Origin: a virus
Lineage: Duplodnaviria > Caudoviricetes
DNA length: 64,000 nucleotides
Direction: 5' to 3' (one strand)
IMG/VR virus record: IMGVR_UViG_3300029928_000003
The notes beneath the pieces were generated by a model. That model ran no database searches. It was not told the DNA's origin and saw only the letters and a list, made by a program, of their open reading frames with translations. Below are positions 17,318-64,000 of the stretch, piece by piece. Position 1 is the stretch's first letter; each line of letters opens with the position of its first letter. The position numbers and the translations under genes were made by a program.

Positions 17318-18265
17318 TTATTTAGTTGTACTCTATTGCTGAACTGGATTTGCAATAGTTTGTGTTACTGCACTGTGTGTTTGTAATCTAGGATCTGCGG
17401 TATTTTCCATTACCAATGTTACCAGTTCATTTATTATCTCTTGACATACATAGTCTGGAAATTCCATAATCTATGAAGTGTCTTCTGTAAGATCTACCTA
17501 TTGCTAGGTAAGTCTAATTGTTTGTGGAGCTTTTATATAATCAATAAGTACGTGTTTTAATGCAAAAATACTATCATCTTTGCCGTACCGAATTTCACAT
17601 CTAACTTTCGATGTATTACCATATCTTACTGCAGCTTCTTTTTCTACTAAACTACTTTTATGACCATTATTACCAATAATTACTCGGTCTAAGTTTGTAT
17701 TATTACCTTCAGTCTTTTGTACCGTATCAGGCACCTAACCTACTTCTACATTATAAACTCCATTCATATCCGTATCAGGATTTGTAGGAATTTTAGTATT
17801 AGTATTTACATTATGTAAATAGTAGTAAGGTCTTTCTGGAAGCGGCCTATTATAAAAATCATTTACTATAACTGACCAAGCGTCGGCTGTTAATCGTTTA
17901 GCAGCAAATTCAACTATGTCTCCTTTATTATAGCATTTATAATTTTGATTTAATTCATAGACACATATACAATTAAGCATGTGTAAATAATCAGTGGGTA
18001 AATCAAATTCATAAGTTGCTTTAAATAAGGGTTGAATAGTAGTGCCGTATTTAGTTGTATGAGTAGGATCAATTACTGCAGTAGCTTTTAATACACGAAG
18101 ATCATCAGTTGTTTGCTAATTGACATCGTAGATGTTATAGCGTTTATTTATATATTGATTAATCGCTTTATTAATAAAATAATTAAAGTCTTGTAAGAGC
18201 ATACTTGGGGCATGAACCTTACTAAGCTCCGTTAGCAATCCTTCAAATACCTATCTAGATGTCAT
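17318..18265 (-). CDS. Neck/ring protein
   Basis: MTSRQVFEGLLTELSK..FNYFINKAINQY..DDLRVL..LPTDYLHML..YIKAP..EFPDYVCQEII; TAG=Gln. Confidence 0.7.
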
Positions 18266-18288
18266 AATTAATCAATTTATTATTAAAT

Positions 18289-45152: not shown

Positions 45153-48100
45153 AAGCATTAAACTAATTATTATTTTGAATAGAATTTTTTATTTTGGGTA
45201 TTTTACCTTTTCTTTTATAACCAAATTCATCAATATAGTATCCAATATCATACCATTCTTCATTATTATTAGAAATTTTTCTAGGTATAGTTCCAGATAA
45301 TTCTTCATCTGCTAGCATTGCCATACCAAATGCGGCAATAATATCAAACTTACGTTTATTCTCGTCAGTATACCTGTTTAATTCGTCAAGTATTTCTTCA
45401 AACCAAATCTCATGACAGTAATCATTTACATAATCTGCAATAAGATCAGTTTGGTGTGAAATAATCGTAGATGTGGCTGGGGTACCATATTGACTTGTTT
45501 TTCCCTTAGTTATGTCTGTTAAAGTAGCCCTAGGTCTCTTCATAAAGTACTATAAATAATGCTAATTTCTAGCCCAACCTAAAAGACTTACACGCGTTGC
45601 TTCAAGATTAATTAAAGCATTATAATATTGAGCTAACTTAATAGCTATTTTGTGAGCATCTCTTAAGTCATTTGGCCTGTCTTTATAAAGAGCTACTATC
45701 TATGGATTCTATAAGCCATAGACTCTTTTATATACAACTATACAAAAATCTGAAGGATCTCTTGTAAATTCTGAGGTTTGACTTGCTCCAATATCTATAC
45801 CGTCAATACCTATTACATATAATCCCTCCATTTCTTCTACTTTAGGTCTTATAATGTTTCCAGATTCCTCATCTCTTATTGGTTCTAATGTCCATAAAGG
45901 ATGTTCTAATATTTTTAATTTACTAGTAGGATCTGGTTTCCATTGAATTCCAGTAACATTTTGTTGAGTATGTATATTATTTTTAAAAATATATTCTAAT
46001 CGCCCAGCTTCTATCTTTGGGCATTTCTTTAAAACTCTTATCTAAGCTAATTGCTCAGCTATATTTACTTTATTAAATTTATTATCACCTTCAAGATTAA
46101 ATGCTTCTTCTGGATTGTAACAATACTCGGCAGCAAAAGTTATTAATTCTTTAGGACTATCAATAAATCTAGCACGTTGTTTATCGTAGTATTCTTTTCC
46201 TTTTTCTGGGGAGGTATATCCACGATTATCCATATACTCTCCTTTTACAATAGAAAAAGCTGGAAGGAAAAAACCAGTTAAAACTTCTTCTCCTGTTTGT
46301 GAATAGTGGTGTTTATAAGGTAAGACATTAAAAGCGTTTGGGTCATAGAAAATTGTTCGTAAACCTTCTAATTTGGCTCCTGAATCGCCTCCAGTCAATG
46401 TGTTATCGTTAAGTTTTTTATCTTAACTTCTTATAATTTGATTTTTATAAGTTCAGCGTACATTTTCATTTAATTAAATGTCGGGCACTCTTGCTAGTAT
46501 TATATTCTTAATAAGTTTCAACTAGTACGCGTTACGGTGACTAATATTATTACATATTAGTTTACCTCGGTATTCCCATCGCAGGGTTCACCGATTTTGC
46601 CCAATTTTAATGCGGCAAATTTATTAATATATATATTATATTTACGATCCAAATATATTGTAGCATTTTTATAAAGTAGATCTGCGGCTCTATGTGCTTT
46701 ACTAGTACTATAACTTAATCTGTAAGTATTTTTATTACAGTTTGTTTTCTACATTAGAAATCCTTTTCCTAAGTATTTCTATACACCCTCTAAAAAATTT
46801 TTAGTACCGACTATTAATAAGGATTCTTCTAATTTTGGGTTCTTTTTACTATGAGGATATACACCTAAAGAACCGTTCCCATCTACATATCCACGTATAA
46901 AATCATATATTAACTATCTATTTTTAAAAATATTGTCCGGCGGAAATGTTAAAATTAAAGATTTGTTTGGAACACATCCTTTAGATATTAGACTATTCCA
47001 TAACTATTCATTTGTTATCTATGTACTTACCATATACATAGTATCTCCATTTTTGTCAGTATGTTCTTTACTTCCAAATTGATAGGTTTCAGTTATATTT
47101 AAACCTTTTTTGTAATTTAAAGCCTTATTATATTTTTTAAGATGTTCAATGTCTTTTAACGATATATTTAAACTTACTGTAAATTTTTTTGCACAAACAC
47201 AGCCATTAGCATACATAAATCCTAACCAATATGCCTTTTCTTCCGTATCAATAACATCAAAAAAATCTTTATTAAATTCGGATTTATTTCTATTAGCAAC
47301 AATTTCAATATTATTAATTTTTAAATATTTAGTAAGAGTTTTTCTATTAATACCATATTTGGCAGCTATAGATACAATACTTCTATCATATATTGCAGTA
47401 TTCAAGTATTCCTAAATTGCTAAAGCTATTACCTACTTTTTGTATTCTGTTTTAGAAACCTCTTCTATATTATTAATTTTTAATTCATCTACAGCTTTAT
47501 TTAAATTACTTTTATTGTTAATTCTTTTTATAGAAAGTCCTTTACTTTTTAAAAAATTACTTATAGTAGAAATACTTATTTTATATTGCTTACTTAAAGT
47601 AGTTAAACTAATTTTATTTTCTTTATATATTTCAAATATTTTATTTAATCGTATATTACGTTCTTCTTTTGTCATACCAGTTATTTTTAGTATTTAAAAT
47701 GTACTTGTTAATAATATATATATATAATAAACTATAAGGTTATCTACCGCCTATAACCTTATAACCGAACTATTCACCCTAAATATGTATTAAAGCATCT
47801 CCTTGAATAAAAGCTTTAGTAGAATTTAACCAGCTTCCCCCCTCTTCATATAAAAGTAAATCACAACGATCACCTCTAATTTTATTAGGGGTGTCTGCGA
47901 TAATTCCTTTAATTACGGACTTACTACCAGATTCAATGTCAATACCATTACGAGATTCTTTATAAGAAGCTTTTCTTTTCATAGCAGTATTAACTACTTG
48001 GGCTAACTGAGAAAAACCATTACCAGTACTATCATTCAAAAATGATAAAGCATTCCATACTTTAGATAGAGTATCTTCTACATATTTAGCTAAATTTGCA

Positions 48101-61050: not shown

Positions 61051-61440
61051 TTAATTACGAACAGATATTTCATTTAGGTTATCTAACCAGTCTAAAACTT
61101 CTTGTGAGTTTTCTAACTTATAATCCTTAATCATATTCCATACTTCATTTAAATCTTTTAAAGATTTATTCATTCGATTAGTAACCCACTTTCTTTGTAA
61201 TTCATCTAATGTTATTGGCGTATAGCCTTCTGGAATCTTATTGTAAACAGAGGTAATAGATTCTCCTTTATTATTAATAAAGTAGAATAAATCATTACGA
61301 ATACTTATAGATTCTTTAATTTCTTTTTTAGTTTCGTCAATGATACGAACATCGTCCCAAGTAATACCTAATTGTTGTAATTTTTTATCTGGATTTTTGG
61401 GATAATATTCTATACCATTATATTCAAATTTAAGTCTCAT
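61051..61440 (-). CDS. Hypothetical protein
   Basis: 129-aa TAG-free ORF starting 2 nt after the tRNA discriminator base. Confidence 0.7.
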   Translation of the reverse strand: MRLKFEYNGIEYYPKNPDKKLQQLGITWDDVRIIDETKKEIKESISIRNDLFYFINNKGESITSVYNKIPEGYTPITLDELQRKWVTNRMNKSLKDLNEVWNMIKDYKLENSQEVLDWLDNLNEISVRN

Positions 61441-61442
61441 AG

Positions 61443-61763
61443 TCGGGGTAGAGAGACTTGAACTCTCACTTATGGTTTTAGAGCTAATTGTTCTGTAAAG
61501 ATTTTTTATTCTTTACTTCTACAACTTCTTATTAATTGTAGTTCAGCATACGTTTTAATCCAAAATATTGGATTGGGAACACTCGTGGTAATATTATATT
61601 TATTCAATTACTATGCGTTACATTACTTTTTGACCTTTCGCAATTCAAAAAGTTAACTCGGCATTGGCATCACAGCTTTTACCGATTTTGCTCCCTACAG
61701 CTATTATATTACTATAATAGTGGGCCTCTTGACCACCTTGCTAACCATTACAAACATACCCCA
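61443..61763 (-). tRNA. Amber-suppressor tRNA (anticodon CUA, Gln-like), exons 61732-61763 and 61443-61483
   Basis: Spliced 73 nt: acceptor TGGGGTA/TACCCCG, D-loop AATGGTTA, anticodon stem GTGGT/ACCAT with loop CT-CTA-AA, T-arm GAGAG-TTCAAGT-CTCTC. Confidence 0.88.
61484..61731 (-). mobile_element. ORF-less group I intron (248 nt) in the suppressor tRNA
   Basis: U|C...G| boundaries; P1 GTGGU/GCC(C)AC; P10 CTCT/AGAG; core collinear with the terL intron. Confidence 0.85.
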
Positions 61764-63360: not shown

Positions 63361-63495
63361 ATATTTAGAGGCTAATATATAGAAAATAAAATTTTTTATG
63401 TGAAAAATAAAAATTTTGTATATTATAGGGTAGTGGGTATACTACCCCTCCAGTCCCCCTACCATGGTAGGTATTAAATTCAAAATTATATTACA

Positions 63496-64000
63496 ATGAG
63501 TAGTACATTGAAGACAAAAAACGACCAGCGAGTAGCTGGTCGTAAACTCGCTGGTGCAAAATTAACCAGCGAGCAAAAAGACGCTCTTAAGGAGCGTCTG
63601 AAGAGGACTCGGACAGCTGAGTTAGATGTTACCGACACAATCACCCTTACGGGTGAATATGTGGAGGCCCTGTTCAACGATACCCCCTACGTGGCTCTAT
63701 GCTGCGTGGGGGGTCGTAGGCTGTCCCTAAACACCTTTCTTGGGGCCCCTGACCCTATGAAGGTGTTTCAGCCTGAAACCGTGGCAGAAGCCACGGAAAT
63801 GCCACATTCAGGGGCTGAACTGCTGGCCCTCTTAGGAGGGTTGGCAGGAGAAACTTTCGAGGTCATCGACAAAGCCGAAGACTTTGGAAGATTTTCTCAG
63901 ACTTTCTATCTGTGGAAACAGGTAGAGAAGACGGAGGGCGAGCCTGAGGGCGAATCTGAGGGCGAATCTGAGGGCGAATCTGAGGGCGAGAAGACGCCTG
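63496..64000 (+). CDS. High-GC hypothetical protein (runs off right edge)
   Basis: MSSTLKTKNDQRVAGRKLAG... open to the window end with no TAG; ends in an EGES repeat. Confidence 0.7.
   Translation, partial: MSSTLKTKNDQRVAGRKLAGAKLTSEQKDALKERLKRTRTAELDVTDTITLTGEYVEALFNDTPYVALCCVGGRRLSLNTFLGAPDPMKVFQPETVAEATEMPHSGAELLALLGGLAGETFEVIDKAEDFGRFSQTFYLWKQVEKTEGEPEGESEGESEGESEGEKTP
63934..63990 (+). repeat. 12-bp coding tandem repeat (GAGGGCGAATCT)
   Basis: About 4.75 copies encoding EGEP-EGES-EGES-EGES-EGE. Confidence 0.85.

Follow-up and report, generated by a model that had tools for sequence, protein, structure and literature searches.

The window analysed here, a stretch of 64,000 nucleotides of phage DNA, carries one group I intron within a tRNA gene and another within terL. 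An earlier note on this DNA had proposed that the two are sister ribozymes, one of which may have moved between the protein gene and the tRNA by reverse splicing into a similar target. The question raised by the locus is whether the two elements form such a pair, or whether they are more distant relatives that happen to occupy the same genome. The results described below indicate that both are probably working-type members of a single IA-like family, that they belong to different subtypes of it, and that the terL copy is not indicated as the source of the tRNA copy.

ARAGORN found no tRNA anywhere in the unspliced window. Removal of positions 61484-61731 yielded a 74-nt amber-suppressor tRNA with the anticodon CUA and a clean cloverleaf, including a 7-nt anticodon loop and U33, which upholds the exact coordinates given earlier for this intron (all window coordinates in this text refer to the minus strand unless stated otherwise). 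The 5′ exon identified with ARAGORN (61732..61763) supplies the 5′ strand of the acceptor stem, the D arm and the 5′ strand of the anticodon stem, and reads ...AAGGUGGU| at its end, with GGUGGU as the last six bases. The 3′ exon (61442..61483) opens with the whole anticodon loop, CUCUAAA, followed by the 3′ strand of the stem, the T arm and the 3′ strand of the acceptor stem; the intron is therefore placed between tRNA nucleotides 31 and 32. Sliding both junctions by 1 nt generates an identical spliced product, and the coordinates 61484-61731 were chosen according to the rules for group I introns, in which a U precedes the cut and the intron terminates in G. Positions 61442-61445 read as the discriminator A followed by CUA, i.e. 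CCA is not encoded and must be added post-transcriptionally.

The acceptor stem of the spliced tRNA begins with UGGGGUA, which we take to be typical of tRNA-Gln. Reassignment of TAG to Gln is known in crAss-like phages, and the acceptor sequence would fit such a reassignment.

The phage reads TAG as a sense codon. Stop-to-stop frames of at least 100 aa, summed over both strands, amount to 47% of the window under the standard code and to approx. 103% when TAG is treated as sense. In-frame TAG codons number in the hundreds in this phage, with 12 in the terL exons and seven in the ORF of the terL intron, and synthesis of both the terminase and the endonuclease should therefore depend on the spliced suppressor. 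The window has a G+C content of 30%, and its genes are encoded almost exclusively by the minus strand. Its TerL shows 55% identity to that of a human-gut phage record and approx. 28% to those of named Crassvirales, and relatives of the phage reach 154 kb. In these respects the window phage agrees with the recoded crAss-like phages, rich in introns, that Yutin et al. 2021 (PMC7886860) described.

The tRNA intron (248 nt, subtype A; family HMM E = 1.7e-51) has no ORF, starts after U31 and ends with ...UUAG|, the last base being the terminal omega G. Its internal guide (61721..61729) was identified by reading the sequence, and in the MFE fold the G of this guide is the partner of U-1. The segment GCC(C)A (61721-61725) forms P1 with GGU and U-4 of the exon, leaving a U-1.G pair at the cut, and AGAG (61726-61729) is complementary to CUCU of the 3′ exon, which gives a putative P10. 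P1 is short (3 bp, a bulged C and about 1-3 bp more), and P5 contains one A.C mismatch. Further elements are the P2 hairpin (61701..61720; 8 bp, GUAA loop), the P6 hairpin (61626..61652), supported by covariation and subtype comparison, whose loop AUUGCGAAAGG marks subtype A, the 5′ strand of P7, GCAUA (61612..61616), with its partner UAUGC at 61546-61550, and the short (subtype A) form of the P7.1 hairpin, located between P7 and P3′ (61588..61611). An MFE fold of the whole pre-tRNA (z = -4.9) recovered the acceptor and T arms, P1 with its U-1.G pair, and P2 through P9.1.

On this basis, the anticodon-stem 5′ strand GGUGGU would pair with the guide to form P1, and the first four bases of the anticodon loop would pair with AGAG to form the P10 that aligns the 3′ exon. 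Guanosine-initiated splicing would then join U31 to C32, after which the anticodon stem could form. As GGUGGU would serve both in P1 and in the anticodon stem, the two helices would compete for this strand.

Inspection of the neighbour genes and domain searches revealed no homing endonuclease in or beside the tRNA intron. A free-standing homing endonuclease adjoining the tRNA was considered as a candidate and dropped, as the neighbours carry no such domain.

The segment previously regarded as the terL intron (46396-46620) turned out to comprise the catalytic core only. The frame of the terL 5′ exon, ...GYKVIGG, ends at 47746 with the bases GGCGGU (...AUAGGCGGU|), and the 3′ exon, in the frame TGGDSGAKLEG, begins at 46395 with ACUGGA. 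The ends of these flanking frames define an intron of 1350 nt (46396..47745), across which the exon frames join as ...VIGG|TGGDSGAKLEG. Its ribozyme core (46396..46616, subtype B; family HMM E = 4.4e-45) extends from the guide GCCGC to the terminal omega G (...AUUG|). The core contains no P2, has a short P6 loop and an extended P7.1 (46494-46525), and the 5′ strand of its P7, GCGUA (46526..46530), is partnered by UACGC at 46456-46460.

The terL guide (46612-46616) base-pairs with GCGGU of the 5′ exon, where the cut falls at a U.G pair. Approximately 1.1 kb of ORF separates the 5′ splice site from this guide, and the pairing therefore places the ORF in the P1 loop. The ORF (46557..47675; 372 aa), the final codons of which overlap the guide and P3/P4, matches phrog_4645, annotated as "endonuclease" (E = 1.8e-52). 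Two LAGLIDADG-like motifs were recognized by eye in its translation, and Pfam gave HTH matches only. In these motifs (..YANG.., ..DGNG..), Asn occupies the usual place of the catalytic acid.

The tRNA and terL introns belong to one large and widespread family of phage group I introns. We aligned 103 distinct full-length members, both window introns among them, with nhmmer and hmmalign, and drew up the structure on the basis of the tRNA intron (P3, P4, P5, P6, the P7 pseudoknot, P7.1, P8, P9 and P9.1; 56 pairs). Pairing was observed in 93.8% of 5656 cells, compared with 34-42% when the partners were slid by 1-3 columns. Compensatory changes occurred in 48 of the 56 pairs, and none of 500 shuffles reached the observed values. 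The P7.1 helix (helix 5, columns 137-141 with 225-229) was paired in 98.8% of cases and covaried in all five of its pairs, and RNAalifold recovered the nested helices independently from nine members. The presence of the P7.1 hairpin between P7 and P3′ makes the family look like subgroup IA. Both window introns keep all family-invariant columns, and each is preceded by a U at its 5′ splice site and closes with a G.

BLAST searches with either core revealed kin in the crAss phages cr6_1 (ATPase gene) and cr118_1 (helicase gene), in the Staphylococcus phages SA2 and 6ec (terL), in C. difficile phages and in rodent-gut phages (MCP). The core pattern of the family matched more than 112 IMG/VR contigs.

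Two subtypes can be distinguished within the family. The type of the P6 loop and the length of P7.1 are linked in 103/103 members (46 of type A and 57 of type B, none mixed), which suggests two alternative, swapped tertiary contacts; this co-change in two structural forms is worth a structural look. The linked regions correspond to alignment columns 102-114 and 146-188. On the ML tree the subtype label changes 11 times, compared with approx. 33 times for shuffled labels, which points either to recombination of the modules or to a weak tree.

The earlier note had also proposed that two intron lineages coexist in the window, and this proposal is supported. The family HMM produced two strong matches there, the tRNA and terL introns, and the sole other match below E = 9 was a weak and partial one in the 3′ part of one capsid intron (E = 2.6e-6). 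Conversely, Rfam model RF00028 detected capsid introns only, three in number (65.2, 51.3 and 32.6 bits); when it was applied to short slices, the tRNA intron gave no match and the terL core scored 9.4 bits (gathering score 50). This miss is a limit of that single model. The sequence blocks that the earlier note had listed as common to the tRNA and terL introns are all present on the minus strand, and in global alignment the two introns matched each other (z = 10.7 against shuffles) much better than either matched three capsid introns (z no higher than 2.7). The refuting outcome named in the earlier note, an alignment no better than to the capsid introns, thus did not occur. The capsid introns represent a different lineage, of the T4/Rfam type.

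As regards P7, the two window helices were read in the sequence. The tRNA intron has GCAUA/UAUGC and the terL intron GCGUA/UACGC, and they differ, as reported earlier, by one compensatory change from G-C to A-U. At this third pair, A-U occurs in 65 members, G-C in 36 and C-G in two, with no mismatch in any of the 103. The description of this P7 as non-canonical is correct relative to the GACUA/UAGUC of the capsid introns and Rfam, but it is the norm of the family (103/103). The assignment of GACUA/UAGUC to the four capsid introns was likewise confirmed only in part: all four carry ...AACGACUA and three have a clear GAUAUAGUC, but the partner in the fourth is doubtful. Within the family, columns 132/350 of P7 form a G-C pair in 103/103 members and the neighbouring pair is C-G in 101/103; the G-C pair could serve as the guanosine-binding site. 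On the ML tree the third pair changes state 14 times or more, and A-U and G-C are each found in both subtypes; the pair provides good evidence for the helix but does not mark a lineage.

A similar conclusion applies to the target sites. Insertion of both introns after G(C/U)GGU, as stated in the earlier note, can be read in both 5′ exons, the last six bases of which (GGCGGU in terL, GGUGGU in the tRNA) agree at five of six positions. The guide of the family usually lies just 5′ of P2 and reads GCCGU, GCCGC, GCCC or similar. Since the automatic P1 finder was too noisy in AT-rich DNA and miscalled both window introns, we used the enrichment of GCC alone. The guide zone contained GCC in 68 of the 103 members (23.6 expected; no more than 34 in any of 200 shuffles) and GCCG[UC] in 27 (2.9 expected). 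This enrichment shows that the family as a whole aims at ...GGU sites, and the similar targets of the two window introns can accordingly be explained without any special link between them.

The terL motif GG-TG-GDSG, which is rich in GGU glycine codons, has been entered by family introns of different phages at two sites located 6 nt apart. The site after GG is occupied in the window, L114 and L036, and the site 6 nt further on in MT835539 (L001), L031, L060, L063 and L097. The 5′ exon of another member, L075 (guide GCCACC), ends with GGUGGU, the same hexamer as in the tRNA target, at a codon position that differs from that of the window terL site. The target likeness and the P7 swap are thus traits of the whole family and not marks of a recent jump within this genome.

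Comparison with relatives throws light on the history of the tRNA intron. A related 154-kb phage (G001) shares the terL intron and its ORF (80% identity for the region, 97% for the core) and carries an uninterrupted tRNA(CUA), at L123:1823-1900, directly upstream of a homologue of the window gene 61051-61440. The occurrence of this uninterrupted gene at the same spot shows that the tRNA intron is a presence/absence difference between relatives. The same split tRNA is found in ERZ808267 and ERZ808258 (97-98% identity; the differences are one extra U in P6 and one T-loop change), and this recurrence in two other assemblies argues that it is not an assembly artefact.

The tRNAs(CUA) of the window and of G001 differ strongly, in the D arm, the T arm and the variable loop, so the tRNA locus may have been replaced as a unit. 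This difference would fit arrival of the tRNA already split, on a cassette gained by horizontal transfer or gene replacement from another phage or a bacterium with tRNA-borne members of the family. Splicing in silico at every plausible junction pair, followed by ARAGORN, revealed no tRNA home among 132 full-length family members (111 from phage records and IMG/VR, and 21 from genome contigs of 185,579 species) apart from the copies of this phage. Targeted pattern scans for other tRNA-borne copies recovered strain variants only; a loose pattern combining the intron end with the anticodon loop gave 118 chance matches and no family members, and a tighter version gave eight chance matches in IMG/VR. 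Arrival as a ready-split cassette is therefore unlikely. A terL peptide-word search of IMG/VR for close relatives of the phage returned none, though L114 is there.

Still less probable is that the intron is dead and the tRNA gene a disrupted relic, with TAG decoded by another phage tRNA or by a host tRNA. The weak P1, the imperfect P5 and the fact that the analysis covers 64 kb of the genome are compatible with such a relic. Against it, no helix is broken, the family-invariant positions of the core are all preserved, as are the U.G pair and the terminal G, the spliced product folds cleanly, the arrangement is kept in three assemblies, the phage has many in-frame TAGs, and ARAGORN detected no other tRNA in the window.

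As regards the relationship between the two introns, they are 63% identical over 222 match columns. When the 102 other members are ordered by similarity to the tRNA intron, the terL intron comes 67th; in the corresponding order for the terL intron, the tRNA intron comes 100th. The nearest kin of each lie elsewhere: L067 (76%), followed by cr6_1 and L044, for the tRNA intron, and L114 (97%), in a relative with an 80%-identical terL region, for the terL intron. The L067 intron is located inside a structural gene of another relative (L067:2294-3620), after ...AGAUAUGGU. The window homologue of this host gene (17318-18271, minus strand) is intron-less and reads ..UACGGC at the site, as opposed to ..UAUGGU.

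In the best ML trees, obtained with FastTree and with a careful IQ-TREE search, the tRNA and terL introns were placed apart, the tree from 218 columns having 51 of its 99 branches unresolved. The AU test did not reject a clade of both introns and L114 (lnL difference of 4.4, p = 0.45), and strict sisterhood is thus unsupported but not disproved. Three peripheral modules that lie outside the match-column tree, namely P2, the P6 loop and the length of P7.1, also differ between the two introns. The two are relatives, and the evidence leans against their being sisters.

The proposal that the two are sisters, one copy of which moved between terL and the tRNA within this genome by reverse splicing, is accordingly the least probable reading: it can draw on the shared family, fold and target type, the near-identical exon hexamers and the AU result, but the low identity and mutual ranks, the different subtypes, the nearer kin elsewhere and the family-wide GGU target argue against it, as does the 97% match of the terL intron to a copy in a relative with an intron-less tRNA, which indicates little change in the terL copy, from which the tRNA copy is nevertheless distant.

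The reading that we prefer, and consider probable, is that of two family members of different subtypes that do not form a recent pair. The terL copy is an old resident, which has its own endonuclease and is shared with the related 154-kb phage. The tRNA copy would have originated as a subtype A intron in a protein gene of a crAss-like phage and would have entered a ...GGU site of the kind favoured by its guide, through reverse splicing or off-target homing. Against this origin, the searches revealed no donor above 76-78% identity. Its arrival in the tRNA could have involved reverse splicing, off-target cutting by a related endonuclease or cassette replacement; of these, entry by reverse splicing is a fair, if tentative, idea.

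Group I introns of phage protein genes provide the closest known parallel. Those of the T4 td/nrdB/sunY, Twort and SPO1 type likewise have a self-splicing-type fold with a peripheral P7.1 and likewise reside in conserved homes (terL, MCP, helicase, ATPase), some of them with homing endonuclease ORFs. The intron at 61484-61731 differs from them in residing in a tRNA gene, and the P7 of its family, GCRUA/UAYGC, differs from the T4/Rfam-type GACUA/UAGUC. In crAss-like Delta/Zeta phages, too, group I introns have been described in protein genes (Yutin et al. 2021; PMC7886860).

The tRNA introns of bacteria and plastids are a second parallel. They are also small, ORF-less group I introns that interrupt the anticodon region, and exon pairing in the anticodon arm matters for them as well. 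Examples are found in tRNA-Leu(UAA) and tRNA-fMet of cyanobacteria, in tRNA-Ile of Azoarcus and in tRNA-Arg of Agrobacterium; these introns are of subgroup IC3. Introns of the IC3 type in tRNAs are not known to have a P7.1, and they interrupt the anticodon loop either at the anticodon itself or beside it. In contrast, the window intron is IA-like with P7.1, is inserted where the stem meets the loop (31/32), upstream of the first loop base, uses the 5′ strand of the stem as its P1 target and occurs in a phage.

The existence of IC3 introns in pre-tRNAs is documented in a 2014 review (PMC3984707), according to which all phage introns known to that date were located in protein-coding genes, despite the many tRNA genes of phages. 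No counter-example was found in the later literature, the coverage of which was incomplete. A phage tRNA is thus an unreported home for a group I intron of this family, and a phage intron of this kind at the unusual 31/32 position adds to the protein-gene cases known to that review.

A third system, the Theta (HDV-like) ribozymes, adjoins suppressor tRNAs in recoded gut phages (PMC10879173). These ribozymes are likewise tied to the maturation of suppressor tRNAs in stop-reassigning phages, but they are small self-cleaving elements that flank the tRNA, are not introns and have a different fold and chemistry.

It is also conceivable, though we regard it as rather doubtful, that no group I intron had been seen in a phage tRNA gene before this one and that its splicing times the code switch, acting as a timer or checkpoint. 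If so, every TAG-bearing late gene, including terL and the gene of the terL-intron endonuclease, would wait on splicing of the suppressor, and a ribozyme of the same family would also gate terL itself. Use of this dependence for timing is a matter of speculation.

A further implication concerns annotation. As ARAGORN found no tRNA and Rfam no intron at the present locus, a recoded phage of this kind would be annotated as suppressor-less. On the same doubtful reading, introns missed by tRNA finders and by Rfam could explain some of the recoded phages without a detectable suppressor (PMC7886860, PMC12386605).

Some minor observations were made in the course of the analysis. At positions 63450-64000 of the window, the G+C content rises from approx. 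0.25 to 0.49-0.54 and a GC-rich ORF on the plus strand runs off the end; this stretch may represent a contig end, a join or foreign DNA. A 98%-identical phage piece (L285; CALEJY010000220.1) was binned in a "Candidatus Melainabacteria" MAG, and relatives with 70% identity in the terL region (L256, L257, L271) were present in an Anaeroplasmataceae MAG and in another bacterial MAG. These placements are possible hints of hosts, or possibly the outcome of low-G+C binning. Finally, a 169-kb IMG/VR phage carries an intron-less tRNA(CUA) with a long variable arm (L008:753-839, minus strand), the anticodon arm of which (GGUGGU CUCUAAA ACCA) is identical to that of the window tRNA.
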